Virus record (IMG/VR): IMGVR_UViG_2687453297_000004
Length of the DNA stretch: 38,250 nucleotides
Strand: one strand, 5' to 3'
Source of the DNA: a virus
Lineage: Duplodnaviria; Heunggongvirae; Uroviricota; Caudoviricetes
Under the pieces are notes generated by a model. It saw nothing but the letters and a program-made list of their open reading frames with translations, was not told the DNA's origin and ran no database searches. The position numbers were made by a program, and so were the translations under genes. Below, in pieces: positions 19,202 through 37,132 of the stretch. Positions within the stretch are counted from its first letter, which is position 1; each line of letters opens with the position of its first letter.

Positions 19202-19203
19202 CA

Positions 19204-19662
19204 ATGGCTTCCGATAACCTGGTCAGTATCACCATTAACGATAAGTCCCTGCGCCGGAGCCTCCGTGCGCTGGATCTTGCTGCCACAGACCTGGAGCCCG
19301 CGATGCGCAAAATCGCCGGAACCCTGCTGGCGGAAACACAGTTTAACTTTCTTGATGAGGGGCGTCCGGGGTGGATGCCCTCGCTGGCAGCGGAAGAACG
19401 TGACGGGCAGACACTGCAGGATACCGGGCGTCTGATGGGGTCAGTATCAACCGACCATGACGACCGGCAGGCTGTTGTGGGGACCAACGTTGTTTACGGT
19501 GCCATTCACCAGTTCGGGGGTAAAACGGGGCGTAATGAGTCTGTTGAACTTCCGGCCCGCCCGTTCCTGCCGGTGACGGGGGATGGAGAACTACAGCCTG
19601 AAGTGGTAATCCCCATCCTCGATACCATTGTCCGCCATCTTGAATCAGCGGCCCGTCGCTGA
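19204..19662 (+). CDS. Virion morphogenesis protein (Mu G-like)
   Basis: 152 aa; position after the F-like gene; remembered similarity to Mu gpG. Confidence 0.6.
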   Translation: MASDNLVSITINDKSLRRSLRALDLAATDLEPAMRKIAGTLLAETQFNFLDEGRPGWMPSLAAEERDGQTLQDTGRLMGSVSTDHDDRQAVVGTNVVYGAIHQFGGKTGRNESVELPARPFLPVTGDGELQPEVVIPILDTIVRHLESAARR

Positions 19663-19704
19663 GTTTTCTCTCTTCAGGCGGGTGATTTATCATTGCCAGC
19701 GAAT

Positions 19705-19750
19705 GAGGGGCTGTATTACCTTTATAAAGGCTTTACAGCCTCTGTTTTAT
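19705..19750 (+). terminator. Candidate intrinsic terminator / regulatory hairpin
   Basis: Stem GAGGGGCTGTA ... TACAGCCTC around a loop containing the perfect palindrome CCTTTATAAAGG, followed by TGTTTTAT, in the 214-bp gap between the G-like and I-like genes. Confidence 0.4.
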
Positions 19751-19876
19751 AACCACCTCCGGTTCACCGCATTGCTTTCCCTGTCCTTCTCCCCTGATGT
19801 TTTCTAAAGCAGATTAAAATCGCCGGGCCTGCATTTCTCACAAACTGTCTCCGACAACATAACGCGGGACAGCAAA

Positions 19877-20992
19877 ATGTCAGCCATTCACATTTTTAAA
19901 GCCGGTACTCATACCGATATGCACGGCAAAAAACTGCCGTTCACGCCAGACGATCTTGCCGCCTGCGTGAAAGCCTATGACCCGTCCGTCCATGAAGCAC
20001 CACTCGTGATTGGTCATCCCAGAACGGAAGACCCGGCGTGGGGCTGGGTGAAAGCCCTGTCGCTCAGCGGCGTCGATCTGATGGCAGAGCCTGCCCAGCT
20101 GGACCCGCAGTTTGCTGAGATGGTCACCGACGGACGATTCAAAAAAGTGTCCGCCTCTTTCTACCTCCCGGATTCACCGTCCAATCCGAAGCCCGGCGTG
20201 CTCTACCTTCGCCATGTGGGCTTTCTCGGGGCACAGCCACCTTCCGTCAAGGGGCTGAAACAGGTGTCCTTCAGTGAGCAGGAAGAAGGTGTGGTGGAGT
20301 TCGCCGACTGGCAGGCCATCACGAATGCCTCCCTGTGGGGAAAGCTGCGCGATTTTCTGATCGCCCGCTTCAGTCTGGACGAGGCAGAAAAAGTCCTGCC
20401 GGAATGGCAGCTCAACAGTCTGCGCGAAGAGGCGTACCGCGACACACTGTCGCAGGATGCAGCAGGTGCACAATTCAGTGAGACAGGCCCGGGGCCGTCT
20501 TCCGCAAGTAACGAGGAATCATCGATGACAAAAGAAGAGATTGAAGCCCTTCAGGAGGAGAACCGCCGCCTGAAGCAGCAGGCTGCTGATCGCGATGCGC
20601 GTGATGCACAGGTCAGACAGGAGCAACTGCATAAGGACAATGTGGCCTTTGCAGAAAAACTGGTCGCAGAGGGCCGTCTGGCTCCCCGCGCCTCCTCCGT
20701 GGTGGTTGCCCTGCTGGATGCCGTCGCCGGTGGCGACAAGCCGGTGGAGTTTGCTGAGGGGGAAAGCCGCACACCGCTGGCCACCGCCTTTCGTTCATTG
20801 CTCTCCGACGGGGAGCCGGTGATGAATTTCGCCGAACAGGCCACAAAAGAGCGTGTCGGCGACACGGTGAAGGTGGATGTGGCAGAGTTTGCGGAAGCCG
20901 ATCCTGAGCGTCTGGCCCTGCATCAGAAAGCAGTGGCCCTGTCCAAAAAAGAAGGCATCAGCTATGAGGCTGCTGTCGCACGCTGCCTGTAA
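19877..20992 (+). CDS. Head maturation protease / scaffold (Mu I-like)
   Basis: 371 aa; position immediately upstream of the major head gene; acidic and coiled-coil C-terminal half consistent with a scaffold. Confidence 0.65.
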   Translation: MSAIHIFKAGTHTDMHGKKLPFTPDDLAACVKAYDPSVHEAPLVIGHPRTEDPAWGWVKALSLSGVDLMAEPAQLDPQFAEMVTDGRFKKVSASFYLPDSPSNPKPGVLYLRHVGFLGAQPPSVKGLKQVSFSEQEEGVVEFADWQAITNASLWGKLRDFLIARFSLDEAEKVLPEWQLNSLREEAYRDTLSQDAAGAQFSETGPGPSSASNEESSMTKEEIEALQEENRRLKQQAADRDARDAQVRQEQLHKDNVAFAEKLVAEGRLAPRASSVVVALLDAVAGGDKPVEFAEGESRTPLATAFRSLLSDGEPVMNFAEQATKERVGDTVKVDVAEFAEADPERLALHQKAVALSKKEGISYEAAVARCL

Positions 20993-21006
20993 TTTAAGGA
21001 GAGAGC

Positions 21007-21960
21007 ATGTCTGATTACTTAAAAGGTAAACGTGTCGTTGATCCGGTACTGACCAGTATCGCCCGTGGCTATAAAAATGCCGCATTCATCGGCGAACGTA
21101 TTTTCCCCGTCGTGCTGACGGACAAGGAAGGCGTGCGTGTACCGACCTTCGGGAAAACCGCCTTTGTGGAATATGACACCGAGCGTGCCGTCGGGGCGGA
21201 CAGCAATGTTCTGGTCCGTGAAAAAACAGGCACGCTGGACCTGGTGCTGGGTGAACACGATCTGGCTGCGCCGGTGGACTATCGCGAGCAGGCGGAGTCC
21301 ATGTTTAACGAAGAGAGCAAGGCCATCCGTCGCGCCACGAATGGCGTGAACCTGCGCCGTGAACTTATCGCTGCCCGTCTGGCTCAGGATGAAAAGGTCT
21401 ACCGTACCGGGCACGTCAAAAAACTGACAGCCAGTGATCGCTGGGCCGGTGGTAAGGGGGACCCCATCGGGGTGATTGAAGCCGGTATGGAAGCGGTCCG
21501 TACGGCCACGGGGCTGCGTCCTAACCTGATGACCATGGGGGCCGGCGTGATGGCGCTGCTGAAGTTCCACCCGGCGATTCAGGCCGCCATCGGAGCCAAC
21601 GAACGCAAGCGCATCACCACAGAAATCCTGCAGGACCTCTTTCAGATCGAAGAGATCGTCATCGGTGCCCCGGTCTCCCTGCCGTCCATGAAAGCGGCAA
21701 TGGATAAGAACAGCGTGCCGGCGGATATCTGGGGAGACAATCTGATGCTGCACTATGTCGGCAAACCGCAGCCGGGGGCGGACAGCGCGGACGAGAACGA
21801 GCCGTCCTTCGGCTACACCCTGCGTCGTAAGGGGATGCCTGTTGCCGACAAATACGACGGAGCCGGTGGCAAGGTGAAGTACTGCCGTTATACCGATATC
21901 TACAAAGTCGCCGTGGTTGGTGGCGATGCCGGGTATCTCATTACCGGTATCAGTAAATAA
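21007..21960 (+). CDS. Major head subunit (Mu T-like)
   Basis: 317 aa; follows the protease/scaffold gene; SD GGAGAG upstream. Confidence 0.75.
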   Translation: MSDYLKGKRVVDPVLTSIARGYKNAAFIGERIFPVVLTDKEGVRVPTFGKTAFVEYDTERAVGADSNVLVREKTGTLDLVLGEHDLAAPVDYREQAESMFNEESKAIRRATNGVNLRRELIAARLAQDEKVYRTGHVKKLTASDRWAGGKGDPIGVIEAGMEAVRTATGLRPNLMTMGAGVMALLKFHPAIQAAIGANERKRITTEILQDLFQIEEIVIGAPVSLPSMKAAMDKNSVPADIWGDNLMLHYVGKPQPGADSADENEPSFGYTLRRKGMPVADKYDGAGGKVKYCRYTDIYKVAVVGGDAGYLITGISK

Positions 21961-21969
21961 GGAGGCGTT

Positions 21970-22308
21970 ATGGGAACCACTCAGCAGGTCATTCTGATCA
22001 CAACCGTAACGGCAGGGGCAGCACTGGCACAGCAGCGTTTTGTCGGGGCAGATAATACCCCCTGTAAAGCCGGTGCCGCAGCGCTCGGGGTTGCCGAAGT
22101 GGATGCTGTTACCGGCGACAGCACGCCGGTGAGCGTTCTGGGCATTATTGCTGTCGAGGCCGGGGCCGCTGTCAGCCGTGGTGTGGCTGTTCAGTCAGAT
22201 GCTCAGGCCAGAGCCGTGCCGCAGTCCGGCGACGGTAAATCCTGTGGTATTGCACTTGATGAAGCCGGGGGTGAAGGCGACGTCATTCGTATCCTGCGCG
22301 GGGTGTGA
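21970..22308 (+). CDS. Hypothetical head-associated protein
   Basis: 112-aa Ala/Gly/Val-rich ORF directly after the major head gene with SD GGAGG. Confidence 0.45.
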   Translation: MGTTQQVILITTVTAGAALAQQRFVGADNTPCKAGAAALGVAEVDAVTGDSTPVSVLGIIAVEAGAAVSRGVAVQSDAQARAVPQSGDGKSCGIALDEAGGEGDVIRILRGV

Positions 22309-22309
22309 C

Positions 22310-22756
22310 ATGTACTGCACCCTGGAGGATTTGCTTGCGCAGGTGCCGGAGCGGACGCTTATCGAGCTCACCAGTGAAGAGATGGACTTCGACTCACCTG
22401 CAACAGTGAATACCCGTGTGGTGGACAGCTGTATCCGCTATGCCGACGAGCTGATTGATGCCCATCTGCGCGGACGCTATATCCTGCCACTGGCAGAGAT
22501 ACCGACTGTTCTGCGGGACATTGCCATCACGCTGGTCCGTTACCGGCTCTACGCCCGCCGCCCGGAAGGTGACCTCCCGGATACGGTGAAGGATGACCAC
22601 AAAGAAGCGCTGCGGCAACTCAGGGAGTTACGTGATAACAGGCTCACGCTGGGGCTGCCGTCCACTCAGAAAGATGTGCCTGAGCCTGGCGAGTTTCGTG
22701 TACGCAGTCGCCCGGCTACTTTCGGCGGTCGTGACGGTTTACTGGAGAAATACTGA
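22310..22756 (+). CDS. Head-tail connector/completion protein (Mu gp36-like)
   Basis: About 148 aa from ATG 22310, directly after the upstream stop; conserved position in Mu-like head modules. Confidence 0.5.
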   Translation: MYCTLEDLLAQVPERTLIELTSEEMDFDSPATVNTRVVDSCIRYADELIDAHLRGRYILPLAEIPTVLRDIAITLVRYRLYARRPEGDLPDTVKDDHKEALRQLRELRDNRLTLGLPSTQKDVPEPGEFRVRSRPATFGGRDGLLEKY

Positions 22757-23220
22757 TGAACGTTCTGCCCGTCCTTGATGCGGTACTGGCCCGGTTACGC
22801 GAGAAGCTGCCGCAACTGCAGGTGGAGTACTTCCCGGAGAAACCGGCTGAATATCGCCTGAACCATCCGGTTGGCGCGTTGCTGCTGAGCTATGCCGGTT
22901 CGCGCTTTGACAGGCCGGATGATACCGGTGCGGTGATCCAGTCTCAGACTATCCAGCTCTGCGTCACGGTGGTCTTCCGCCAGCTCAACGGTAAAAAAGG
23001 GGCGATTAATGTCCTGGATGCTGTCCGCCGCATTCTCGGTGGCCACACCCCGCCCGGCTGCCGCCGCCGTATCTGGCTGACCCGCGAGGTGTTTATCGGT
23101 GAAGTCAGGGGGCTGTGGCAGTACGCCCTCGACTTCGCGACTGAAAGCGTCTTTATCGAAGACAGCGATTTACCGTCCGGCCCGCTGTTAACCGAAGTGA
23201 ACTATGAGGAAAGCGAGTGA
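22756..23220 (+). CDS. Head-tail joining protein (Mu gp37-like)
   Basis: 154 aa; ATGA overlap with the upstream gene. Confidence 0.5.
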   Translation: MNVLPVLDAVLARLREKLPQLQVEYFPEKPAEYRLNHPVGALLLSYAGSRFDRPDDTGAVIQSQTIQLCVTVVFRQLNGKKGAINVLDAVRRILGGHTPPGCRRRIWLTREVFIGEVRGLWQYALDFATESVFIEDSDLPSGPLLTEVNYEESE

Positions 23221-23471
23221 TGAAAGAATACCGCTATTCCGGCCCGGCCAGCGGCGTCACGCTGTCGGACGGAACCGAAATCCTGCTCTGGCCGGGGAAG
23301 ACGGTTTCCCTGCCGGAGGAGCATGACTACGTGAAGGTACTGGTGGCGCTGAAACATCTGACGCCGGTACCTGAAGAGACTAAACCCGCCGGCACACCGG
23401 CTGTGCAGTCACCAAAGCGCAGAAGCAGCAGTGACAGCGAAGTGAAAACGGAGGACACCCATGGCAGCTAA
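23217..23471 (+). CDS. Small protein upstream of the sheath gene (Mu gp38-like)
   Basis: 84 aa; overlapping start and stop with both neighbours. Confidence 0.45.
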   Translation: MMKEYRYSGPASGVTLSDGTEILLWPGKTVSLPEEHDYVKVLVALKHLTPVPEETKPAGTPAVQSPKRRSSSDSEVKTEDTHGS

Positions 23472-24888
23472 CTATCTGCATGGTCCCGAAACCATTGAGG
23501 TGGAAAACGGTGCCCGCCCGGTTAAAACGGTGAAATCTGCCGTTATTGGCCTGATTGGTACCGCCCCGATGGGGGATGTCAATACGCTGGTACAGTGCCT
23601 GTCTGAGAAAGACGCAGCGGCATTTGGCAGCCAGTTCACCGGCTTTACCATTCCGCAGGCGCTGGATGCGATTTATGACCATGGTGCAGGTACCGTTCTG
23701 GTCATTAACGTCCTCGACCCGGCGAAACATAAAACGGCGATCGAGGATGAGGTGGTTACCTTTGACAAATCGACAGGGCAGGCCAGACTGGCGCATCCGG
23801 TTGTCGCTAATGTGGTGGTGAAAAACAGTGAAGGCAGCACCACCCACACGGCGAACACGGACTACCGTGTTGATGCGCAGGCGGGTGTGCTCACGAACCT
23901 GGGCAAGGCTATTGAGGCCGGTGGCAGCGTGAAGGTGAGCTATGAGTACGCGGACCCGTCGAAGGTGACTGCGGCGGACATCATCGGCGGGGTGAACAGC
24001 GCCGGAAACCGAACCGGCATGAAGCTGCTTAACGACAGCTTCAACCTGTACGGCTATTTCGCCAAAATTCTGATTGCGCCGGTGTTCTGCACCCAGAAGA
24101 GTGTCGCAGTTGAGCTTATCGCCATGGCAGAGAAGCTGGGCGCGGTAACCTACATTGATGCGCCTGTCGGTACCACCTTTGCACAGGCTCTGGCAGGTCG
24201 TGGCCCGGAAGGCACCATCAACTTCAATACCAGCTCCGACCGCGTCCGTCTGTGCTATCCGCATGTGAAGGTATATGACCCGGTGACAAACACAGAGCGT
24301 CTGGAGCCGCTCAGCCAGCGTGCAGCAGGTCTGCGTGCCAGAGTCGATCTGGACAAGGGCTACTGGTGGTCATCCTCCAATCAGGAGATTCTGGGGATCA
24401 CCGGCGTGGAGCGCCAGCTGTCCGCGATGATTGATGACCCGCAGAGTGAGGTGAACCTGCTTAACGAACAGGGGATCACCACGGTATTCAGCAGTTACGG
24501 CAGCGGCCTTCGTCTGTGGGGTAACCGGACGGCAGCATGGCCAACGGTCACCCATATGCGTAACTTTGAGAACGTTCGCCGCACCGGTGATGTGATCAAC
24601 GAGTCCATTCGTTATTTCAGCCAGCAGTACATCGACATGCCGATTACTCAGGCGCTGATTGATGCACTGACGGAGTCGGTCAACGCCTACGGTCGCAAAA
24701 TGACTGGTGATGGTGCGGTACTGGGCTTCCGTTGCTGGTTTGATCCGGCCCGCAATCCGGAGACGGAGCTGGCCGCCGGGCACCTGTTGCTGAGCTACAA
24801 ATATACGCCACCACCGCCGCTGGAGCGACTGACGTTTGAGACTGAGATCACCTCGGAATACCTGTTAACCCTGAAAGGGGGCAACTGA
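23461..24888 (+). CDS. Contractile tail sheath protein
   Basis: 475 aa; immediately followed by the tube gene. Confidence 0.85.
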   Translation: MAANYLHGPETIEVENGARPVKTVKSAVIGLIGTAPMGDVNTLVQCLSEKDAAAFGSQFTGFTIPQALDAIYDHGAGTVLVINVLDPAKHKTAIEDEVVTFDKSTGQARLAHPVVANVVVKNSEGSTTHTANTDYRVDAQAGVLTNLGKAIEAGGSVKVSYEYADPSKVTAADIIGGVNSAGNRTGMKLLNDSFNLYGYFAKILIAPVFCTQKSVAVELIAMAEKLGAVTYIDAPVGTTFAQALAGRGPEGTINFNTSSDRVRLCYPHVKVYDPVTNTERLEPLSQRAAGLRARVDLDKGYWWSSSNQEILGITGVERQLSAMIDDPQSEVNLLNEQGITTVFSSYGSGLRLWGNRTAAWPTVTHMRNFENVRRTGDVINESIRYFSQQYIDMPITQALIDALTESVNAYGRKMTGDGAVLGFRCWFDPARNPETELAAGHLLLSYKYTPPPPLERLTFETEITSEYLLTLKGGN

Positions 24889-25409
24889 TGTCAAAGATTG
24901 AGATAAACCGCATCACGAATGCCAACATCTATCTGGATGGTACTAACCTGCTGGGACGGGCTGAGGAAGTTAAACTCCCCGATGTCTCCATGATTATGCA
25001 GGAACACAAGGCGCTGGGGATGGTGGGTAAGGTGGAACTCCCGGCTGGTTTTGACAAACTGGAAGGCGAAATCAAATGGAACAGCTTTTACCGCGATGCG
25101 ATGCTGTCTGCCGCGAACCCGTACAGGTCGCTGGCACTGCAGTGTCGTTCCAGCGTCCAGCGCTACAGCTCGCAGGGGCTGATTGACGAAATCCCGCTGG
25201 TCACCTTCCTGACGATTATGTTCAAGAAGAACCCGCTGGGGACGTTCAAACAGCACGAGAACGCCGAGTTCTCCAGTAGCTTCACCTGCACGTATATCAG
25301 ACAGGTACTGGATGGTGAAGAGCTGCTGCAACTGGACTATCTGGCCAACATCTTCCGGGTCGGCGGTGTTGATCAACTGACTGACTACCGTATCAATATC
25401 GGGGGCTGA
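24888..25409 (+). CDS. Tail tube protein
   Basis: 173 aa; ATGA overlap with the sheath gene. Confidence 0.8.
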   Translation: MSKIEINRITNANIYLDGTNLLGRAEEVKLPDVSMIMQEHKALGMVGKVELPAGFDKLEGEIKWNSFYRDAMLSAANPYRSLALQCRSSVQRYSSQGLIDEIPLVTFLTIMFKKNPLGTFKQHENAEFSSSFTCTYIRQVLDGEELLQLDYLANIFRVGGVDQLTDYRINIGG

Positions 25410-25411
25410 CG

Positions 25412-25693
25412 GTGAGTGTTGAACTGACGGATAAAGGAGGACGATGTGCGGCACTGGGCATGTCAAATGGTACGTGGTTTACCCTCCTTGATATTCCGGG
25501 GGTGGAAACCCTTTTTAATACCCGTAAAACCAATGACCCGATTGACTGCACACGTTCAAAGGCCCGCAAACTGGCGGATTTGATTGAAGCATGGGAGCCT
25601 CCCGACCACTGGTTCTCCGGCACCGGCAAATCTGAGGGAAAGACGCTTCTCATCGCTTTCCTGCGTAACTGCAAGGGGTTTCGCACTTGCTGA
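25412..25693 (+). CDS. Hypothetical protein downstream of the tube gene
   Basis: 93-aa ORF from GTG 25412; weak start signals. Confidence 0.3.
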   Translation: MSVELTDKGGRCAALGMSNGTWFTLLDIPGVETLFNTRKTNDPIDCTRSKARKLADLIEAWEPPDHWFSGTGKSEGKTLLIAFLRNCKGFRTC

Positions 25694-25699
25694 CATCAC

Positions 25700-25722
25700 A
25701 GGGGCTCCGGCCCCTTCTTCTT
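25700..25722 (+). terminator. Candidate intrinsic terminator/attenuator after the sheath-tube genes
   Basis: AGGGGC-TCCG-GCCCCT hairpin followed by TCTTCTT. Confidence 0.35.
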
Positions 25723-25790
25723 AATCTCCTTTAATATCCGTCACGCGCTTCTCCCGACATACTGCCCTGAACTTACACAGGAGCACAATC

Positions 25791-26126
25791 ATGTCACAGA
25801 CCCCATCCGATACTTTTAAATTGTCTTATCCCTTCACCACTGCTGCAGGCACCAGAATTGAGCTGGTTGAACTGAAACGCCTGACGGTAAAAGACCTGAA
25901 GCAGGTGCGCAAAATCAGCAAAAACCCGGCAGACTGGGACGAACCGCTGATTGCCCGCAGTACTGGTCTTCTCCCGGAAGATCTCGACAATATGGATCTG
26001 GCTGATTACCTGCAGTTACAGAAACGATTTCAGCTCATCACGGGGATGGGTGAGAGCAACCAGGGCGCTGACGCAGGCGCAGGGGCTGCTGGCGAGATGG
26101 TTCCGGTTTCAGCCGGGGGAGATTGA
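25791..26126 (+). CDS. Tail assembly chaperone (short form)
   Basis: 111 aa; SD AGGAG upstream; located between tube and tape measure genes, with an overlapping ORF in another frame. Confidence 0.6.
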   Translation: MSQTPSDTFKLSYPFTTAAGTRIELVELKRLTVKDLKQVRKISKNPADWDEPLIARSTGLLPEDLDNMDLADYLQLQKRFQLITGMGESNQGADAGAGAAGEMVPVSAGGD

Positions 26127-26208
26127 TGCCCTCGATACTGACGATCTGGAGATGTGGCTGGAGCAGGCTGAAGAGCAAATCAAAAGCGAGTACGGCGACA
26201 AATCATAG
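25791..26208 (+). CDS. Tail assembly chaperone, frameshift-extended long form (predicted shift at the G5 run about 26115..26119)
   Basis: A second ORF (25951..26208) overlaps the 3' end of the chaperone ORF and lies in the +1 (equivalently -2) frame relative to it; GGGGG run sits 2 codons before the stop. Confidence 0.4.
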
Positions 26209-26283
26209 TACAGACAGCCGCCAGTAGCGGCTGTTCTGCGTTATCCCCTCACGTCTTTTCACCTTCCCCGGAGGTTAACCACT

Positions 26284-29200
26284 ATGTCGGGACAGTTTTC
26301 AGTCGGCGTTGTTATCGGCGGGATGATTGGCAGCACATTCCGTTCTGCAATGAGCGGTACCCGCCGTGCGCTTGATTCCCTGAGCGATACCTCACGCCGC
26401 CTGCAGGAACGTCAGAACGCTTTAACCCGTGCAACAGAACGTTATGGTCAACTGGGTTCTTCCCGGATGCAGCATCTCAACAGCGAGCTGCTGCGGGTAA
26501 GCCGCACCATGGAGCAAATTGAGCGCCAGCAGCGCCGTCTGTCAGCGGCATCCGCTACCAGTGATGCGCTGAAAGCTAACCGCATGGCGCTGTATGGTCA
26601 GGGGATTGAAGCGTATGGCATGGCACAGACTGTTTATCATACGGTTTCCCCTGCCGTTCAGCAGTCCATGTCTTTTCAGGACAAAATGATTGATATGTCG
26701 ATCACCGCAAAATATGACAATAAAACGCGGGATGCACTTGCCGGACAGATAAAAGGCTGGGCGCTTAAATACAATCAGTATCAGGATGAGCTGCAGGAGG
26801 CGGTGGGTTCACTCATCAGCGACAATATTGATAATGTGTCAGATATCGGTTTTCTGATGCCGGATATTGCCCGCGCGACAACGGCAACACGCACGTCTGC
26901 TCAGGACTGGGCAAAAGTGGCCGCAGTCTGGCAAAACTCCCTGAAAGGTGCGGCCAGAGATTTTGGTGCCGTTCAGAATATTATGGCTTATGCCGGTGAC
27001 CAGGGGTCATTTGAAATCCCGGATCAGGTCAAGTGGATGCAGTCCCTGGCCCCAATGATGGCGGGTATTGCCAGTGGAAAAGAGGCTGTTGCTGAAATCG
27101 GGGCCAGTCTCCAGATAGCAAAAATCGGTGCAGGTTCCACCGACGAAGCAGCCAATAATTTTAAAAACTTTCTTACCAAAATTTTTGCCCGCGATACTCA
27201 GAAACAGTTTGCTGATCTGGGTATTGATTTGCAGGGATCTATTGCGAGTTATAAGGCTGCGGGGATCTCTCCGATTGAAGGGATGTTGAGTGTTATAGAA
27301 CGTTACCTCAATGCCAAAAGCCCCGAAGCGCTGGCCGGCTTCAAATCCGCCATGAAAATAAAGAATGATACGGCAAGAGATGAGGCACTTCAGGCTCTGG
27401 CGAAAAACTTTGGTCTGGGTGATATGTTCGCGGATATGCAGGTCATGGCATTTATCCGCCCGATGCTGGCCAACATGGACAGATATCGAGAGATCCGTGC
27501 CGGTGCTCTCAGGGCTGCGGATAACGATTTGCTTGCCAGTGCTTACGATCAGCGACTGAAATCTCCCCTTGAAGCCACTAAAACACTTATGGTCAGCAGT
27601 CGCGATCTGGCAATTACGCTGGGCGATCAATTAGCTCCATCTTTTATTTCTTTGACTCAGGAACTGCTTCCACTCATTCAGGGGGCAAAACACTGGGTAG
27701 CGACTCACCCGCAATTTGTCAGTGGGGCTTTTAAGCTCATCAGTGCGCTCCTTGCGATTAAGATAGCGACTGTTGGTCTCAAACTGGGGCTGAATCTCCT
27801 TATTTCCCCCTTTGTAAGTGTCTGGAAAAATGCTGTTTTACTCCGGACCAACTGGCATCGACTGACTACCGCACTCGGAGAAGGTGGCAAATTACGCTGG
27901 CTTGTCACTGGATTCAGCCGACTGACCAGCGGAGGACTGAAACTCAGCAAAGTTCTGGCGGGCAGCCTCGTTCGCGGTTTTATGAGCGCTGCACGTGCCG
28001 TTCTCTGGATTGGGCGAGCGCTGATGATGAATCCCATCGGTCTCGTTATCACCGCTGTCGCGGCAGCAGCTTACCTTATCTACCGCAACTGGGGGCTGTC
28101 AGTGGTTGGTTTAAACAGCGCTGGGCTGACATTCAGGAAGCCTTTAACGGCGGCATTGTGGGAACTGGTAAGTTGCTGATTAACTGGTCGCCGGCAGGCC
28201 TGCTCTATAAAGCCTTTGCGGCTGCGCTGAAATATTTCGGCGTTGCTCTGCCGGCAAAGTTCACCGACTTCGGTGGCCATCTTATCGACGGTCTGATTAA
28301 CGGTATCAAAAGCAAATGGGGGTCGCTCAAATCCAGTGTAACCGGAATGGGTGACAGCATCAGTAGCTGGTTTAAACAGCGCTGGGCTGACATTCAGGAA
28401 GCCTTTAACGGCGGCATTGTGGGAACTGGTAAGTTGCTGATTAACTGGTCGCCGGCAGGCCTGCTCTATAAAGCCTTTGCGGCTGCGCTGAAATATTTCG
28501 GCGTTACTCTGCCGGCAAAGTTCACCGACTTCGGTGGCCATCTTATCGACGGTCTGATTAACGGTATCAAAAACAAATGGGGGTCGCTCAAATCCAGTGT
28601 AACCGGAATGGGTGACAGCATCAGTAGCTGGTTTAAACAGTGCTGGGCTGACATTCAGGAAGCCTTTAACGGCGGTATCGCGGGAACTGATAAGCTGCTG
28701 ATTAACTGGTCGCCGGCAGGTCTGCTCTATAAAGCCTTTGCAGCTGCGCTGAAATATCTTGGTGTTGATCTGCCGGCAAAGTTTACCGACTTCGGTGGCC
28801 ATCTTGTCGATGGTCTGATTAACGGTATCAAAAACAAATGGGAGTCGCTCAAATCCAGTGTAACCGGAATGGGCGACAGCATCAGTGGCTGGTTCAGCGA
28901 AAAGCTGGGCATTCATTCGCCGAGCCGCGTGTTTATGGGCTTTGGTGACAATATCGCGCAGGGGGCCGCCATTGGCCTGCAGCGGACCACTCCGCTTGCA
29001 GCTCTGGCCGGGCAGCGAATGGCCAGTGAACTGCTCCCCAAAATGCCCGTGAGCATTCAGGGGCCAGAAATACGGGATAACACTTCAGGTGTTCGCTTCA
29101 GTATGCCGTTGCCCGATATCAATGGGTTTATGTCGTCTGCTAAAAATGCGATCGGAGCCGTAATCAATAGTTTGTCTTCCATGCCCGCTATTCCGCTCTC

Positions 29201-29495
29201 CACCCGGGCATCGATTTTACCAGGGCAACGTCTGGCAAATGAGATGACACCGGATGTTCCCCGTATCCCCTCGCCTGAAATCCTGGCTGCCGGATATTCA
29301 GGCCGTGGTGCAGCTGCAACCGGCGGTGGAACGTCTGGTGGTATCCAGGTCAGCTTTAATCCTCAGTTTTTCCTCAATGGCAGGGAAACCACAGCGCCTG
29401 CAGGACTGACTGGTGCCCTGAATATGAGTCTGCATGAGCTGGAAAAAATGCTGGAGCGTCTGCTGGCTCAGAAACAACGTAAGGAGTACCGCTGA
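26284..29495 (+). CDS. Tail tape measure protein, interrupted by an apparent frameshift at a G5 run (28091..28095)
   Basis: ORFs 26284..28179 and 28158..29495 are in different frames; the protein-like reading switches frame at TGGGGGCTG, and one extra G would fuse them in frame; the C-terminal part contains three tandem 87-aa repeats. Confidence 0.7.
28098..28892 (+). repeat. Three tandem copies of a 261-bp (87-aa) coding repeat within the tape measure gene
   Basis: Near-identical units starting about 28110, 28371 and 28632; matching antisense ORFs at 28205, 28466 and 28727 are spaced exactly 261 bp apart. Confidence 0.9.
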
Positions 29496-30379
29496 TGTTT
29501 GCCGTACTGGGTGATATTGAGTTTGAGCTGATTACCTACTGGGACGGCTTCGAGGCCACGTTCGGCGTCGATTATGCGGAGCATGCCCGCATCGGGGGTA
29601 AGCCTGGCCTGCAGTTCGTCGGCGACAGGCTGGACGAAATCCAGATAACTCTGGTTTTCCATCAGCATTATTGTGTACCCGATGTGGAGCTGGCGAGACT
29701 GCGAACAGCCATGAAAGCCCATCAGGCACTGGCGCTGGTCTTCGGCAACGGTGACTATCGCGGCTGGTTCGTGATTACCGATGTGACTGCAACCAGCGAG
29801 CAGACTGACAGTACCGGCAACGTGCTGGCTGTCAGTGCCACCGTGTCTCTCCGGGAATACACCGGTGACCCGAAAAATCCTCTGCAACCACCGGCAATAC
29901 GCACGAAGCTCCCGGGTGTCGGGGCGGTCTCCGGTGCCATTCCTTCACCTTCCGGGGTGGCGCAGTTCATCCGCAACGGCGTCAACTATGCGAAACAGGC
30001 GCAGTCTGTACTCCAGACCACTATCAGCGCCGTTCGGGTGACACAGAAAATGAAGGATAACCCCGTTGTCGCACTGACCCGTGTGCCGGGGCTGATGAGC
30101 GGACTGGGTAATATCTCCGGGGCTCTGGGGAAAAGTGTTCCGGCGTTTAACGCACTCTCTGAATCCATGCCCGATGCCATCAGTCTGGCCAGAACAGCCA
30201 GCGAAGCAGCCACGTATGTACAGCAGGCACAGTCTGCGCTGAGTGGTGTGGACAAAAGAAATATTGCAGGTGCTCTGGATACCGTTTCCGGGCAGCTTAA
30301 CGCCGTCGGAACAGCATTCAACCGCATGTCTCCGGGATTAAGTGCAATGGCCGCCAGAATACTGACGAGGAGTGTGTGA
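29495..30379 (+). CDS. Tail protein (gpU / DNA-circulation N-terminal domain-like)
   Basis: 294 aa; ATGA overlap with the tape measure stop; assignment mainly from its position in the tail module. Confidence 0.55.
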   Translation: MFAVLGDIEFELITYWDGFEATFGVDYAEHARIGGKPGLQFVGDRLDEIQITLVFHQHYCVPDVELARLRTAMKAHQALALVFGNGDYRGWFVITDVTATSEQTDSTGNVLAVSATVSLREYTGDPKNPLQPPAIRTKLPGVGAVSGAIPSPSGVAQFIRNGVNYAKQAQSVLQTTISAVRVTQKMKDNPVVALTRVPGLMSGLGNISGALGKSVPAFNALSESMPDAISLARTASEAATYVQQAQSALSGVDKRNIAGALDTVSGQLNAVGTAFNRMSPGLSAMAARILTRSV

Positions 30380-30591
30380 TGTTTCTTGAACATGTTACCC
30401 GTGACGGAGAGCGCTGGGATTCGCTGGCATGGCAGTACTACGGTGACCCGCTGGGCTATCCCCGGATTATTGCCGCCAATCCGCACGTGGCCATCACGCC
30501 GGTGCTGCCCTCCGGGCTGTTGTTACTGATCCCGGTGATTGAGGCTGAAGAAGCCCGTACAGAAGAGGATATTGCCCCATGGCTGAGATAA
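30376..30591 (+). CDS. Tail protein X-like
   Basis: 71 aa; resembles P2 gpX-like small tail proteins; lies between the gpU-like and gpD-like genes. Confidence 0.6.
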   Translation: MMFLEHVTRDGERWDSLAWQYYGDPLGYPRIIAANPHVAITPVLPSGLLLLIPVIEAEEARTEEDIAPWLR

Positions 30592-31733
30592 ACAGCACTG
30601 CGCAAGTCACATCAGCGTTAACCGGCGTCAGCGATGTGCTGACACCGGTGTTCACTCTGTGGTATCTGCAGAAAAACATCACCTCTGATATCGCGCCTTA
30701 TGTCACCCGTGTGACCTGGAGCGATAACATCAAAAATGAGTCCGATACCATTGAGGTGGAGCTGGACGACACCGATGGCCGCTGGCTGGATAAGTGGTAT
30801 CCGGGCAAGGGTGACACGCTGACGCTGAAAATGGGCTATCAGGGCGAGAAGCTGCTGTCCTGCGGTACGTTCTCTATAGACGAGATCGAAGTGAGTTCGC
30901 CCGCTTCCGTTGTTTCTATCCGTGGGGTGGCCACCTCGGTTAACAGTGCCCTGCGGACTAAAACCAGTCGTGGTTTTGAGAACACCACGCTGGCAGCTGT
31001 TGCGGGGCGGATTGCCAGAAAGCACCGACTGAAACTGGTGGGCAGCATTGAGTCCATCAGAATCGACCGGGTGACCCAGTATGCTGAAACCGACGTGGGT
31101 TTTCTGCGCCGGCTGGCCAGCGAGTATGGTTATGCAGTGAAAGTGGTCAGTGACCAGCTGATTTTTTCTCATCTGGCCACACTGCGCAGTCAGGAGCCGG
31201 TCAGGCAGTTAAAACCGCAGGATGTGGCCCGCTTTTCCCTGCGTGACACCATCAACCGGGTCTATAAATCTGCAAAGGTAAAACACCAGAAAAGCAGCAG
31301 TAAAAAACTGATCGTCTACGAAGCTGATGGTGGTACCCGTGAAAGCGACAAAAAGCTCAAAGGTGGTAAGGTTACCAGCGCTGACTCACTTAAAGTTAAC
31401 AGCCGCGTCAGCGACCCGGACAGTGCCCGGATTAAAGCGGATTCAGCACTGGCCAGACATAACGAATACCAGCAGAACGGCTCCCTGACGCTGACGGGAA
31501 CACCTCAACTGACAGCAGGCAACAAAATTGAACTGGTGGGTTTTGGGCAGTTATCCGGGCCATGGCTCATAACCACTGCCCGCCATGCGTTTGACCGTAA
31601 CAGCGGCTACACCACAGAGCTGGAAGTGGCACGGGGGCCAGTCACAAGAGGGAAAAAACAAAAAACTCAGAAACTCACGGTTTATCACCCGGATGGCAGT
31701 ACATCGACGGTGATTAAGGAGAAGAAAAAATGA
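30579..31733 (+). CDS. Late control protein D-like tail/baseplate protein
   Basis: 384 aa; resembles the P2 gpD family; upstream of the spike gene. Confidence 0.7.
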   Translation: MAEINSTAQVTSALTGVSDVLTPVFTLWYLQKNITSDIAPYVTRVTWSDNIKNESDTIEVELDDTDGRWLDKWYPGKGDTLTLKMGYQGEKLLSCGTFSIDEIEVSSPASVVSIRGVATSVNSALRTKTSRGFENTTLAAVAGRIARKHRLKLVGSIESIRIDRVTQYAETDVGFLRRLASEYGYAVKVVSDQLIFSHLATLRSQEPVRQLKPQDVARFSLRDTINRVYKSAKVKHQKSSSKKLIVYEADGGTRESDKKLKGGKVTSADSLKVNSRVSDPDSARIKADSALARHNEYQQNGSLTLTGTPQLTAGNKIELVGFGQLSGPWLITTARHAFDRNSGYTTELEVARGPVTRGKKQKTQKLTVYHPDGSTSTVIKEKKK

Positions 31734-32326
31734 CTGGTGTCACTCGTCAGGTCGGTACGGTCAGTGCCGTTGATGCCGACAGGGTTCAGGCCCGCGTTCG
31801 TCTGCCTGAATGCGATAACCTGCGCACAAACTGGCTTAACGTGCTGCAGCGCAATACCCAGGATAACAAAGATTACTGGCTCCCTGACGTGGGGGAGCAG
31901 GTTGAGGTGCTGCTCGATGCCAACGGCGAGGATGGTGTTATTCTGGGCGCGGTGTATTCAGACGTCGATAAACCACCGTTCAGTGACAAAAATATCCGGG
32001 GAACCCGGTTTGCTGATGGTGCAGAGTACAGCTACAACCGGAAGACGCACACTCTGACCATCCGGGGCGGCATTGAGCATATTGTCATTGAGTGTGGTGC
32101 TGATGTGGTATTGAAAACACAGAAAGCCACGATTGACGCACCGGAAACCGAACTTACCGGAGATCTGCGTGTCAGGGGTAAGCTGATTTACGAAGGAGGC
32201 ATGGCGGGTTCTGGTGGTGAAGGTGTTACCGCGACCATCCATGGCAATATCGAGATTAAAGGGAATGCCCATGCCACGGGCAGTATGTTGTCTGATGGCG
32301 AAAACTCCAGCCACCACTCCCACTGA
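31730..32326 (+). CDS. Baseplate spike protein (gpV-like)
   Basis: 198 aa; N-terminal region and position consistent with a P2 gpV-type baseplate spike. Confidence 0.7.
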   Translation: MTGVTRQVGTVSAVDADRVQARVRLPECDNLRTNWLNVLQRNTQDNKDYWLPDVGEQVEVLLDANGEDGVILGAVYSDVDKPPFSDKNIRGTRFADGAEYSYNRKTHTLTIRGGIEHIVIECGADVVLKTQKATIDAPETELTGDLRVRGKLIYEGGMAGSGGEGVTATIHGNIEIKGNAHATGSMLSDGENSSHHSH

Positions 32327-32380
32327 GCTTTTTAAACGCCTTTAATATCAGCGTTCCCGCACGGGGGCAATACTGCCCCC

Positions 32381-32728
32381 ATGAAAACAACCTCAGTATT
32401 CTGGCAACCAGCCCTGCAGGCTCCCGGCGAAATTGTCCGGGGGCTGGATGATATCCGGCAGGCGATTCAAATTATCCTGCGGACTCCCCGCGGCAGCGAC
32501 CCGCATCGCCCGGAGTTCGGCAGCAATCTGCATCTTTATATCGACTGGCCTGTAGACCGGGCCATTCCGCATGTGGTGCGCGAATCCGTCGATGCCATCC
32601 GGCGCTGGGAGCCCCGCTGCCAGCTTATGTCAGTTAAACCCGCCGTCGACGGCGAACATCTTACGCTCCGGGTGAGCTGGAAAGGCTCAGACGGACAGAC
32701 CCGGACTCAGGAGCTGCTATGGCGCTGA
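32381..32728 (+). CDS. Baseplate wedge protein (gpW / T4 gp25-like)
   Basis: 115 aa; pattern IRQAIQIILRTPRGSDPHRPEFGSNLH typical of the gpW/gp25 family. Confidence 0.7.
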   Translation: MKTTSVFWQPALQAPGEIVRGLDDIRQAIQIILRTPRGSDPHRPEFGSNLHLYIDWPVDRAIPHVVRESVDAIRRWEPRCQLMSVKPAVDGEHLTLRVSWKGSDGQTRTQELLWR

Positions 32729-33822
32729 CAGAACCCGATTTTATTGAACGCGATGCCGACAAAATTACGGCAGAAATGATTGCGAAGTATGAAGCGGATA
32801 CCGGCAAAACGCTGTACCCGGCACAGGCAGAACGTCTGCTGATTGATCTGTGGGCCTATCGCGAAATGCTGGTCAGGGTTGCGGTACAGGAGGCAGCAAA
32901 GCAGAATCTGGTCGCCTTTGCCCGTGAGCCGATGATTGATTACCTCGGTGAACTGGTTGGTGTATACCGTCTTGCCGCGCAGCCTGCCACCACCACGCTC
33001 CAGTTCTCCGTAGATGAGGCACTGGCCATTGATGTGCTGATCCCGGCAGGCACCCGCGTCAGCGCTTCCGACAGCGTTATTTTTGCCACCGATACAGATG
33101 TGGTACTGAAGGCCGGATTGCTGCTGGTCAATGTCACGTCCACCTGTACCGAACCCGGTACCGCTGGTAACGGCTGGCAACCTGCGCAGGTCAGTCAGTT
33201 ACTCGATGAGATTGATAACGTCGACCTGCTGGTGAGCAATCTGACGGCCAGTTCCGGCGGTTCAGAACAGGAAGACGATGACAGGCTCCGGGAGCGTATC
33301 AGGCTGGCCCCGGAGTCATTCACCAATGCCGGAAGCCGTGGCGCATACCGCTTTCATGCCATGCAGGCCCATCCCAACATTGTCGATGTTGCTGTGCTTT
33401 CCCCGGTTCCCGGGACCGTAGATCTGTATCCGCTGCTCAGTACCGGTCTGCCGGACGGCGGTGTTCTCACGCTGGTAGAGAGTTTCTGCTCTGATGAGAA
33501 AGTCAGGCCACTCACTGATACAGTGCGGGCTAAAACACCAGTGAAGGTGGATTACACCATTGAAGCCAGGATTACGATCTATCGTGATCAGGATGCCAGG
33601 TCTGTAAAAGATGCCGCTAACAGCGCCATACAGAACTGGGTGGCATCACGTGCCGCCACGCTGGGGCGCGATATTGTCCCCAGCCAGATTATCAGTGCAT
33701 TGTCCGTTTCCGGGGTGTACCAGGTTGAACTGGTGACACCGGCACTGCGGGTGGTGGCAGAAAACGAATGGGCAAACTGTACGGCAATCACTCTTAACAT
33801 GACTGGAGTGTCTGATGACTGA
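32719..33822 (+). CDS. Baseplate J-like protein
   Basis: 367 aa; follows the gpW-like gene with overlapping start. Confidence 0.7.
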   Translation: MALTEPDFIERDADKITAEMIAKYEADTGKTLYPAQAERLLIDLWAYREMLVRVAVQEAAKQNLVAFAREPMIDYLGELVGVYRLAAQPATTTLQFSVDEALAIDVLIPAGTRVSASDSVIFATDTDVVLKAGLLLVNVTSTCTEPGTAGNGWQPAQVSQLLDEIDNVDLLVSNLTASSGGSEQEDDDRLRERIRLAPESFTNAGSRGAYRFHAMQAHPNIVDVAVLSPVPGTVDLYPLLSTGLPDGGVLTLVESFCSDEKVRPLTDTVRAKTPVKVDYTIEARITIYRDQDARSVKDAANSAIQNWVASRAATLGRDIVPSQIISALSVSGVYQVELVTPALRVVAENEWANCTAITLNMTGVSDD

Positions 33823-34393
33823 GCCATTACAACTCCCGCCACCGCTTGAGGGTGATATCAGTCTCAGGACGCTGGGAAGACTGGCAGGACGGCTGGATAA
33901 CATCGACCTGAGCGTACTGATGGTCTTTCTCGTCGATATCGTCGACAGTTCCGCGCTGCCATGGCTGGGCGAGCAGTTCTCACTGTCTGGCGATGGCTGG
34001 GAGCTGGCGGAATCGGACGGTGTTCGCCGCATGCTTATAAAAGCAGCCATCGAACTGCACCGGTATAAAGGGACGCCGTGGTCAATCCGGGAAGTTATCC
34101 GCCGTTTTGGCTTTGGTGAAGTGGATCTGATTGAAGGCACAGGTCGTCTCAGTTACGACGGCAATCGCAGCTATAACGGACTGTTTGTTCATGGAGATGC
34201 AGCCGCCTGGGCAGTTTATCGCGTTATTCTGAAACAGCCCATTACTAACGATCAGGCCGCGATGCTGCGTCAGACGCTGGCTGCATTTGCACCGGCCCGC
34301 TGCCATCTGGCCAGCCTGGAGTATCAGTCTGTGGCCATTCGCTATAACAATACAGCCATCCATGATGGCAGTTATAACCACGGGAGCAGTTGA
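33815..34393 (+). CDS. Tail protein (P2 gpI-like baseplate component)
   Basis: 192 aa between the J-like and tail fiber genes. Confidence 0.6.
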   Translation: MTEPLQLPPPLEGDISLRTLGRLAGRLDNIDLSVLMVFLVDIVDSSALPWLGEQFSLSGDGWELAESDGVRRMLIKAAIELHRYKGTPWSIREVIRRFGFGEVDLIEGTGRLSYDGNRSYNGLFVHGDAAAWAVYRVILKQPITNDQAAMLRQTLAAFAPARCHLASLEYQSVAIRYNNTAIHDGSYNHGSS

Positions 34394-35991
34394 TTATGGG
34401 AAACCTGAATGAAACAGAAAAGTGGGAAGAAAATATCTATCAACTGGAGACATCAGATCCGGTTCTGGGTGGTGCAGACGGGATATCAAATCGAGCCCCC
34501 CGGCAACTGGCAAACAGGACGAAATGGCTGAAGAAGAAAACGGAGGAAGCCGCACAGTCACTGGCTGAACACGTACGTTCCCGTAACCACCCGGACGCGA
34601 CACTGACAGCTAAGGGGTTCACCCAACTGAGCAGTGCCACCAACAGCACCTCTGAAACGCTGGCCGCCACACCAAAAGCGGTCAAGGCTGCATACGACCT
34701 GGCAGCCGGCAAGGCGCCTGCCAGCCACACTCACCCGTGGAGTCAGATAACGGGAGTGCCTGCGGCTTCACTGACGGCAAAAGGCACCGTACAACTGAGC
34801 AGCGCCACGGACAGTCAATCAGAAACTGAGGCTGCCACGCCGAAGGCTGTGAAAATCGCGTATGATCTGGCCCGGGGAAAATACACAGCCCAGGATGCAA
34901 CAACGACCCGTAAAGGGATCGTACAACTGAGCAGTGCCATCAACAGCACGTCTGAAACGCTGGCCGCCACACCAAAAGCGGTCAAGGCTGCATACGACCT
35001 GGCAGCCGGCAAGGCGCCTGCCAGCCACACTCACCCGTGGAGTCAGATAACGGGAGTGCCTGCGGCTTCACTGACGGCAAAAGGCACCGTACAACTGAGC
35101 AGCGCCACGGACAGTCAATCAGAAACTGAGGCTGCCACGCCGAAGGCGGTCAAGGCTGCATACGACCTTGCAGCCGGCAAGGCGCCCGTCAGCCACACTC
35201 ACCCGTGGAGTCAGATAACGGGAGTGCCTGCTGCCTCGCTGACGGCAAAAGGCACCGTACAACTGAGCAGTGCCATCAACAGCACGTCTGAAATACTGGC
35301 CGCCACACCGAAAGCGGTCAAGGCTGCATACGATCTGGCAAACGGAAAACAACCGGCAGATGCCACGCTCACTGCTCTGGCAGGACTTGCCACTGCAGCA
35401 GATCGGTTGCCTTATTTTACCGGAGCAGACCGCGCAGCGCTGGCAACCCTTACAGCTATTGGTCGCGCTATTATCGCTAAGGGCAGTATAAAAGATGTCC
35501 TCAATTACCTTGGTTTGGGGGAAGGCTCGGCGCTGCCCGTTGGTGTACCTGTTCCGTGGCCCACTGCCACACCGCCAGCAGGCTGGTTACAGTGCAACGG
35601 AGCTACGTTCACCAAAGAACAATATCCTGTTCTGGCCAGAGTCTACCCGACCCTCCGTCTTCCCGATTTGCGCGGTGAGTTTATCCGTGGATGGGATGAC
35701 GGACGAAAGATTGACACCGGGCGTGCCCTGCTAAGCAGCCAGAGCGGAATGATTGAGAAACACCGTCATATTGTTGTTGCCAATGATGGTTACGACACAA
35801 AAGATGAATGGGAACTGGCTGCGATTTTCAAAAAAACATACACACAAGGACGAGGACTTGATGCCACAAATACAGGAGGGAGTCTGACCCCATCACCAAC
35901 ACTTCATTCGCGAGGGAGTATCGGTAATACTGGCGGGAGGGAAACCCGTCCACGAAATATTGCCTTTAACTACATTGTCAGGGCGGCCTAA
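34390..35991 (+). CDS. Tail fiber protein (constant N-terminal part, internal fiber repeats, currently fused to C-terminal cassette 1)
   Basis: 533 aa; five copies of the motif VQLSSAxxSxSETxAATPKAVKxAYDLA; C-terminus PRNIAFNYIVRAA; a conserved linker (VPVPWPTATPPAGWL...) recurs in two downstream cassettes. Confidence 0.8.
   Translation: MIMGNLNETEKWEENIYQLETSDPVLGGADGISNRAPRQLANRTKWLKKKTEEAAQSLAEHVRSRNHPDATLTAKGFTQLSSATNSTSETLAATPKAVKAAYDLAAGKAPASHTHPWSQITGVPAASLTAKGTVQLSSATDSQSETEAATPKAVKIAYDLARGKYTAQDATTTRKGIVQLSSAINSTSETLAATPKAVKAAYDLAAGKAPASHTHPWSQITGVPAASLTAKGTVQLSSATDSQSETEAATPKAVKAAYDLAAGKAPVSHTHPWSQITGVPAASLTAKGTVQLSSAINSTSEILAATPKAVKAAYDLANGKQPADATLTALAGLATAADRLPYFTGADRAALATLTAIGRAIIAKGSIKDVLNYLGLGEGSALPVGVPVPWPTATPPAGWLQCNGATFTKEQYPVLARVYPTLRLPDLRGEFIRGWDDGRKIDTGRALLSSQSGMIEKHRHIVVANDGYDTKDEWELAAIFKKTYTQGRGLDATNTGGSLTPSPTLHSRGSIGNTGGRETRPRNIAFNYIVRAA
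34621..35340 (+). repeat. Near-identical 300-bp tandem duplication inside the tail fiber gene
   Basis: 34621..34856 and 34921..35156 are almost identical by direct comparison; a partial third unit follows to about 35340. Confidence 0.85.
35498..35523 (+). other. Candidate serine-invertase crossover site (gix/hix-like), site a, inside the tail fiber gene
   Basis: ...ACC TT GGTTTGGGGGAA at the 5' boundary of a homology block of about 190 bp shared with the inverted cassette at 37410..37606. Confidence 0.45.
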
Positions 35992-36008
35992 ACGTTGGTT
36001 TAGGAGAA
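35983..36008 (+). other. Candidate crossover site b (direct orientation relative to site a)
   Basis: CCTAAACG TT GGTTTAGGAGAA with imperfect dyad CCTAAAC/GTTTAGG, overlapping the tail fiber stop, at the 5' edge of cassette 2. Confidence 0.4.
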
Positions 36009-36029
36009 GGCTCGGCGCTACCCGTTGGT

Positions 36030-36512
36030 GTGCCTGTTCCGTGGCCCACCGCCACACCGCCAGCAGGCTGGTTAAAGTGCGACGGGCGCGCCTTTACAAA
36101 AGAACAATATCCTGTTCTGGCCAGAGCCTACCCGACCCTCCGTCTTCCCGATTTACGCGGTGAGTTTATCCGTGGATGGGACGACGGGCGCAAAGTTGAT
36201 ACAGGACGTAAGTTGCTGTCCGCACAAGGGGCAACGCTGTTAAGAACAGCAATGCTGGATTATTATAACCAGGACACTACGGGAACCTCGGGGATAGTCG
36301 GCATGGGATTCAACAATGAAGATTCCATTACAGACCTTCGTGAGGGCAGCTTTAAAATGCCGGACGGGACAACATTCAGCGATCCTGTCGTGGCAATGTC
36401 AGACAATGGTATGCAGGCTACTATTCTGACCTCTATCAGAAGCGGGTATGCGAAGGGTATCACTGTCAGACCCCGTAGCATTGCACTTAATTACATTGTG
36501 AGGGCAGTTTAA
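36030..36512 (+). CDS. Alternative tail fiber C-terminal cassette 2 (no independent start; frame open from about 35970)
   Basis: Begins with the conserved linker VPVPWPTATPPAGWLKCDG...LRGEFIRGWDDGRK, then a divergent distal domain ending SIALNYIVRAV; its stop overlaps the start of the tail fiber assembly gene. Confidence 0.6.
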   Translation: MPVPWPTATPPAGWLKCDGRAFTKEQYPVLARAYPTLRLPDLRGEFIRGWDDGRKVDTGRKLLSAQGATLLRTAMLDYYNQDTTGTSGIVGMGFNNEDSITDLREGSFKMPDGTTFSDPVVAMSDNGMQATILTSIRSGYAKGITVRPRSIALNYIVRAV

Positions 36513-37126: not shown

Positions 37127-37132
37127 ACGGTA

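Follow-up and report, generated by a model that had tools for sequence, protein, structure and literature searches.

The window analysed here, a 38,250-nucleotide (nt) stretch of tailed-virus DNA (Caudoviricetes; IMG/VR record IMGVR_UViG_2687453297_000004), comes from a contractile-tailed prophage of Escherichia coli and contains a tape measure gene with a tandem array of three 261-base-pair (bp) units in its 3′ part. The assignment of the gene, made in an earlier sequence-only reading of the window, was confirmed by profile searches: the protein in its repaired form (see below) matches Pfam PF10145 (PhageMin_Tail, the TP901-family core) at 71.3 bits against a cut-off of 33.2 over amino acids (aa) 159–340, and phrog_28 (“tail length tape measure protein”) at 9.7e-135. 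As sequenced, the gene is split into two open reading frames (ORFs) in different frames (26284–28179, 631 aa; 28158–29495, 445 aa), on which that reading did not remark. The 87-residue module encoded by each unit is located in the C-terminal third of the protein, directly after two hydrophobic segments (27715–27816 and 27997–28083), and the array is followed by a conserved LGIHSPSRVF motif (28905–28934). The parts of the gene are as follows.

26284–28179, plus strand: 5′ part of the tape measure gene, a 631-aa ORF holding the PF10145 core, with a TGA stop 29 codons past the frameshift.
28091–28095, plus strand: G5 run, site of a 1-nt deletion; relatives have G6, or TGGGGNGC in more distant ones.
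28098–29495, plus strand: 3′ part of the tape measure gene, out of frame with the 5′ part and comprising the three units, the LGIHSPSRVF motif, and the C-terminal region; stop codon at 29493–29495.
28098–28358, plus strand: repeat unit 1, a-type (..YFGVA..HLID..KSKWG..), opening with the codons of the 5′ junction of the array, GTC AGT GGT (VSG).
28359–28619, plus strand: repeat unit 2, a chimera, with the first 9 nt of internal-junction (b-side) type (ATC AGT AGC) and the remainder a-type.
28620–28880, plus strand: repeat unit 3, b-type (..YLGVD..HLVD..NKWE..).
28882–28894, plus strand: partial fourth copy, TCAGTGGCTGGTT (ISGWF), matching TCAGTGGTTGGTT at 28099–28111 (VSGWF).

Tandem Repeats Finder reported the array at 28099–28894 with a period of 261, 3.0 copies, 95% matches, 0% indels, and a score of 1438; it is by far the stronger of the only two arrays in the window. 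The three head-to-tail units make up 783 bp (28098–28880) and are followed by the 14-nt start of a fourth copy, which ends at 28894. The earlier description of the units as perfect to near-perfect was right in that three tandem copies free of indels are present, but overstated their identity: of the 261 nt, 5 are different between units 1 and 2 (98.1% identity; 4 of 87 residues), 18 between units 2 and 3 (93.1%; 7 residues), and 21 between units 1 and 3 (92.0%; 10 residues). Likewise, the 87-residue consensus given there was translated in the correct frame and fits units 1 and 2, whereas unit 3 departs from it at 7–10 residues; unit 3 also carries a window-specific G-to-A substitution at 28690, changing Gly to Asp. 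The units belong to two types, a and b, ~8% apart, with a synonymous divergence (dS) of about 0.2 and a ratio of nonsynonymous to synonymous divergence (dN/dS) of about 0.2, from which it follows that both types are coding sequence in the plus-strand frame, under purifying selection. An antisense ORF of 278 aa (28080–28916, minus strand) covers the whole array. It was rejected as a candidate gene, being most likely a by-product of a repeat unit free of stop codons in that frame; the substitutions between units follow the plus-strand codons.

The tape measure gene was found in 635 of 5,426 complete E. coli genomes, and a systematic sample of 60 of these 635 genomes was examined for copy number. 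The 2952-nt gene with two units predominated (39 genomes), followed by the 3213-nt gene with three units (13) and the 2691-nt gene with one (2), the rest being single-unit genes of a divergent 821-aa type (3) and partial genes (3). Representatives of the length classes that were checked had intact ORFs of 1070, 983, and 896 aa, and the same length classes were met again in the protein database, where the 983-aa clusters were by far the largest. Among the best 80 IMG/VR loci, one unit was present in 65, two in 12, and three in 2, and the one-unit loci took in essentially all relatives below about 90% identity. Since these relatives carry a single unit, one unit appears to be the ancestral state, with two units the common state in the lineage of the window and three a minority. 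Whole-unit alleles were always in frame, and no four-unit allele (1157 aa, 3474 nt) was found among the 120 best protein clusters, ~100 listed E. coli genomes, or the best 80 IMG/VR loci. The sequence-only reading had proposed comparing copy number among related prophages and held that an identical number in all of them would tell against its interpretation; the number is one, two, or three.

Outside the array, the genes form three lineages, with 20–74 differences per 2,430 nt between lineages, and copy number varies within each of the three, as in a variable-number tandem repeat. Alleles of different copy number were found on nearly identical flanks: L001 (strain ZH063; three units) and L002 (two units) show 1 difference over 8,430 flanking nt, L004 (one unit) and L008 (two units) show none over 2,430 nt, and L005 (one unit), L009 (two units), and L007 (strain AVS0969; three units) are 7–11 nt apart outside the array. 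Near-isogenic sets of strains are ZH063 (three units) with USVAST219 or KE21 (two), 4/4 (two) with IPCEC48 (one), and AVS0969 (three) with Ecol_745 (two) and FCI23 (one). The a/b pair itself appears to be an older duplication that predates the three lineages, because the divergence between the two types (dS about 0.2) is greater than that between lineages (3% or less). A recent duplication, as had been suggested, therefore fits units 1 and 2 (dS = 0.017), but not the pair of a- and b-type units.

Several units are chimeras of the two types. In the middle unit shared by the window and L001, b-type sequence gives way to a-type within unit positions 9–22; that of L007 is b-type to about position 62–68 and a-type from position 76, with outer units equal to those of the two-unit allele L012. 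Single units switch in the opposite direction, from a-type to b-type, and at different places (positions 23–101 in L004, and positions 102–123 in L005 and L024); unit 1 of L008 contains a b-type tract within an a-type unit, resembling a patch of gene conversion. The distinct breakpoints are what would be expected as the signature of unequal homologous recombination or slippage between the repeats and, because they differ among the chimeric units, they require at least two independent expansions from two to three units and at least two independent contractions from two to one. The earlier proposal that units expand and contract by homologous recombination is thus supported both by the differences in copy number at near-identical flanks and by the chimeric units with different breakpoints. 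As for the origin of the array, which is bracketed by TCAGTGGTTGGTT (28099–28111) and TCAGTGGCTGGTT (28882–28894), the founding duplication may have occurred at a 13-nt microhomology, TCAGTGGYTGGTT (V/I-S-G-W-F), present one unit length apart in the presumed single-unit ancestor. Near-identical copies of 261 bp would then recombine unequally or slip during replication, yielding chimeric units and new copy numbers, and unit 2 of the window would be the expected product of one unequal crossover with its breakpoint between unit positions 9 and 22.

Rings of the phage tail tube are about 4 nm apart. Engineered internal in-frame deletions and duplications in lambda gpH and T4 gp29 reportedly gave proportionally shorter and longer tails (Katsura & Hendrix 1984; Abuladze et al. 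1994; cited in a 2026 survey, PMC13585406). In TP901-1, for which 56 mutants were studied, a 347-aa deletion reduced tail length from 118 nm to 65 nm, corresponding to 0.15 nm for each residue (PMC5099701), and the same per-residue rule predicts the tail lengths of phiCbK (PMC3556154). Based on the ruler rule of ~0.15 nm per residue, each 87-residue unit would add about 13 nm to the tail, corresponding to roughly three tube or sheath rings, and the three alleles would specify three discrete tail lengths; copy number thus probably changes tail length in steps.

It is unlikely, but deserves to be weighed, that the copy-number polymorphism is real and has little or no effect on length, because the module is not in the part of the protein that measures and forms, for instance, a compact hairpin of helices. 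The module would then act in membrane penetration or DNA entry, and the number of units would be near neutral or tune something else. Its position directly behind two hydrophobic, membrane-like segments agrees with such a role, as does the work on TP901-1 showing that tape measure proteins also act in steps of infection besides the setting of length (PMC5099701); moreover, tandem repeats are mostly missing from myovirus tape measure proteins according to the 2026 survey (PMC13585406), so that repeats are atypical for contractile tails. A model of the 1070-aa protein, made with AlphaFold2 from the single sequence, was mostly helical and unreliable (mean predicted local distance difference test score, pLDDT, 39.4); at this low confidence, the module is made up of short predicted helices with many breaks that contain Gly, which also suits the compact form. 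A sequence search of the PDB with the tape measure protein gave no relative. These points are to be set against the finding that deletions in the repeat region and in the hydrophobic region of TP901-1 both gave tails that were shorter by an amount proportional to the number of residues lost (PMC5099701). In addition, every variant observed here consists of whole units in frame, and the purifying selection on both unit types indicates that the extra residues are expressed and constrained. No tape measure protein, lambda gpH and T4 gp29 included, is known to accept a large internal insertion while the tail keeps its length. A stepwise effect of copy number on tail length is the reading that we prefer.

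An origin of the three-unit array in the window by faulty assembly, with the repeat wrongly expanded or collapsed, is very improbable. Such faults do occur at this locus: a sequencing gap is declared in the record of phage PhiKM (PQ738613.1, 4914–5240) precisely where the array lies, the IMG/VR locus L022 displays an impossible “7-unit” structure with an N at a junction, and in the window itself a suspicious homopolymer indel adjoins the array. However, 19 complete genomes of E. coli have the same three units in the same order, in genes that are 99.9% identical to that of the window; the units can be told apart by 5–21 differences, so that a spurious expansion is unlikely; and independent three-unit alleles occur in other lineages (L007 and L018). 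The “7-unit” allele of L022 (IMGVR_UViG_2740892433_000005) was rejected as a scaffold artefact, with the N at position 2970 in the junction ...CCGGCAGG N GGGGGGCTGTCAG.... RefSeq marks the three-unit genes of ZH063 (NZ_CP014522.1, 3001–6213) and AVS0969 (NZ_CP124475.1, 501–3713) as pseudogenes, for the reason “incomplete; partial in the middle of a contig”. The two genes are nevertheless uninterrupted 1070-aa ORFs, and the label is probably an annotation artefact arising from the extra repeat.

The split of the tape measure gene is due to a shift of frame 3 nt upstream of the array. The gene of the window lacks the single uninterrupted frame of its intact relatives (1070, 983, or 896 aa), and adding one G back to the G5 run restores an uninterrupted ORF of 1070 aa. 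Over the whole gene, the window differs from the prophage of ZH063, the closest complete genome, by two substitutions and this one missing G only, and the missing G is the sole gap in a 19.7-kb alignment of the two prophages. The G5 allele was found in none of 613 complete E. coli genomes containing this stretch, when queried with both local sequence variants (the second, major variant, which has two nearby substitutions, as a synthetic G5 sequence), and in none of ~90 fetched loci, among which the distant ones carry TGGGGCGC or TGGGGTGC, without a homopolymer. Exact-match scans of viral, genome, and metagenome contig collections with the local variant of the window likewise gave no G5 match, with four matches for the G6 positive control, and an exact look-up of the 631-aa product found no such protein on record. 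The G6-to-G5 deletion therefore appears to be private to this sequence.

That the break in the G run is functional, serving as a programmed ribosomal frameshift or as a phase-variable on/off switch of tail production, is extremely improbable and may be excluded for practical purposes, because the arrangement is neither shared nor variable in the relatives: the two ORFs overlap at the G5 run, where tRNA-Gly could re-pair in the −1 frame, and in tailed phages the adjacent gene, that of the chaperone, often has a programmed frameshift (PMC5009743), but every relative examined has a single read-through frame, G5 is absent from the 613 genomes, ~90 loci, and three contig collections, the distant loci have no homopolymer, and neither the run-length polymorphism predicted by a switch nor the conservation predicted by a programmed shift is seen. 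For the private deletion, a real inactivating mutation and a homopolymer sequencing error are about equally probable. As sequenced, the gene cannot encode a full-length ruler and is non-functional; if the deletion is real, the prophage would be unable to build normal tails, and if it is an error, the gene would encode an intact 1070-aa ruler with three units. Small frame-breaking indels were also noticed at different sites in other copies of the gene: strain 83972 (L010, NZ_CP058220.1, 501–3715) carries 2 additional bases close to the 5′ end, L038 has one base fewer in a C run at gene position 2902, and the gene of H82 (NZ_OZ369470.1) spans 2953 nt. These may be errors or real decay.

Altogether, we consider it likely that the tape measure gene of the window carries an in-frame triplication, in an array that recurrently gains and loses whole units, that copy number sets tail length stepwise, and that the G5 deletion is private. 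Several points weigh against this account. The direction of gain and loss was assigned by parsimony over about 20 sequences only, and the genome sample is dominated by a few clones (e.g., ST131-type strains), so that the counts are those of genomes and not of events. The repeat is mis-assembled in some drafts, as seen in the gap of PhiKM and the N of L022, and copy numbers from short reads are less certain than those from complete genomes. The effect of copy number on length is extrapolated, chiefly from phages with non-contractile tails; the only myovirus precedent known to us is T4 gp29, reportedly described by Abuladze in 1994. Finally, the AlphaFold model (mean pLDDT, 39) is too poor to separate an extended helix from a compact fold that would add little length.

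Further features of the gene and of its surroundings place the array in a wider context. Two of them are given here.

29010–29252, plus strand: older, diverged 71-aa internal duplication (GQRMASELLP.. / GQRLANEMTP..) in the tape measure gene, not in the 821-aa relative L006.
25791–26126, plus strand: tail assembly chaperone gene (PF10109), with an overlapping +1-frame extension ORF that ends at 26208.

The 87-aa module is widespread: it matched 553 cluster representatives in a library of 1.84 billion proteins, and of the full-length proteins among the top 150, 59 have a single match, 24 have two, 7 have three, and 2 have four, at varying spacings. Other members of the gene family have duplications over the same region, namely an in-frame tandem duplication of 564 nt in L068 (3271–4410; 99.8% identity), an in-frame duplication of 705 nt in L076 (3201–4540; 90% identity), and a duplication of 101 aa in P0001. 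These three and the older 71-aa duplication of the window show that internal duplications arise readily in the C-terminal third of this tape measure family in general. The length variants L068, L076, P0001, and P0098 of the family also include a 68-aa deletion between two LGD motifs.

Tape measure genes normally follow a gene for a tail assembly chaperone with a frameshift extension. The window conforms to this order, with the tail sheath, the tail tube, and the PF10109 chaperone with its extension upstream, and the baseplate/hub genes gpU (29495–30379), gpX, and gpD (30579–31733) downstream of the tape measure gene. The extension ORF of the chaperone is in the +1 frame, not in the usual −1 frame, and a CCGGGGGAG run at 26113–26121 immediately precedes the stop codon; a −2 shift has been reported in the chaperone gene of phage Mu (PMC5009743). 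An rve-type transposase and a MuB-like ATPase are also encoded in the window, and the closest isolated phage is PhiKM (PQ738613), which is classed in Bcepmuvirus and has a tape measure gene 97.7% identical at the DNA level. Based on the order of the tail genes, the transposase, the ATPase, and the classification of PhiKM, the host element is a BcepMu-like prophage of E. coli, transposable and with a contractile tail.

The same prophage is inserted in ssuB in strain ZH063, interrupting that gene. The late region of the window (15425–35147, 19.7 kb) is 99.69% identical to the ZH063 prophage and the early region (1–14833) 93–96% identical with many gaps, from which the window appears to be a mosaic relative to ZH063. 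The second tandem repeat of the window lies at 34912–35340 inside a tail fibre ORF (34390–35991) and has a period of 168, 2.6 copies, and 84% matches; the fibre gene measures 1932 nt in ZH063 and 1602 nt in the window, the ZH063 prophage having an extra 300 nt in this region. The tail fibre thus also appears to vary in repeat number among relatives. At ~35510–37616, the window has inverted matches to the tail-fibre end of the ZH063 prophage (e.g., 35510–35724 and 35956–36220 on the opposite strand), where a recombinase gene is located. These inverted matches and the recombinase gene suggest an invertible tail-fibre region similar to the G segment of Mu.

Repeats in tape measure proteins are best known from siphophages, whose “units” are W/F repeats of 11 or 18 residues that undergo duplication and loss (Belcaid et al. 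2011, PMC3271669), and such units have been discussed as facilitators of change in tail length (Mahony et al. 2016, PMC5099701). The present array resembles them in being made of in-frame tandem units that vary in number between related phages by duplication and loss. It differs in that their units have Trp/Phe at fixed spacing, whereas the unit here is 87 aa (261 bp) of near-identical DNA, long enough for ordinary homologous recombination, in a contractile-tailed phage. Neither the patterns of Belcaid et al. ([FW]-x(10) six times, and the mixed 11-11-18 pattern) nor three F/W residues spaced 11 apart were found in this protein. With lambda gpH and T4 gp29 the gene shares in-frame length changes, the basis of the ~13-nm prediction; those cases are engineered mutants with measured tails, whereas the one-, two-, and three-unit series described here is natural and known from sequence. 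The BcepMu-type myophage PhiKM has the same gene order (sheath, tube, chaperone, tape measure, gpU, gpX, gpD), but yields no repeat count because of the gap in its record. Large in-frame tandem repeats are also found in bacterial surface proteins such as the streptococcal alpha C protein, in which recombination between repeats changes the length. Near-identical units of a few hundred bp, gain and loss of whole units, and preservation of the frame are common to both; there the size of an antigen is altered, whereas here the product is a ruler of phage assembly, and a phenotype in the geometry of the virion is predicted. Searches of the literature (tape measure, ST131, Mu-like, unequal crossing, Bcepmuvirus, Escherichia) returned nothing specific on the polymorphism. 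That repeats of tape measure proteins are duplicated and lost is well established, and this case is a clean natural example; it is distinguished by the far larger, near-identical unit, the contractile-tailed phage, and the unusually clean comparative evidence for gain and loss of whole units.

Since the repeat breaks short-read assemblies and the NCBI pipeline labels intact three-unit genes as pseudogenes, the copy number and integrity of such genes in databases are not to be taken at face value. A further possibility, distinctly unlikely at present, is that the array is a fast-switching dial of tail length, in which the one-, two-, and three-unit alleles interconvert by recombination within single prophage lineages of widespread E. 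coli clones and are kept by selection and not by drift. If so, the prophages would command three contractile-tail lengths ~13 nm apart, for example matching the thickness of the capsule or O-antigen of different hosts; alternatively, the changes might provide escape from host immune sensors that recognise tape measure proteins. Control of tail length by a protein ruler is textbook knowledge, and the evidence for it comes nearly all from mutants engineered in a small number of phages, most of which have non-contractile tails. Prophages described here that are 0–1 nt apart outside the array form a natural series, with one, two, or three copies of the module, a contractile tail, and an isolated relative in PhiKM. 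Such a series makes testable the tail length per residue in a myovirus, the occurrence of whole-ring steps, and the effect of tail length on host range.

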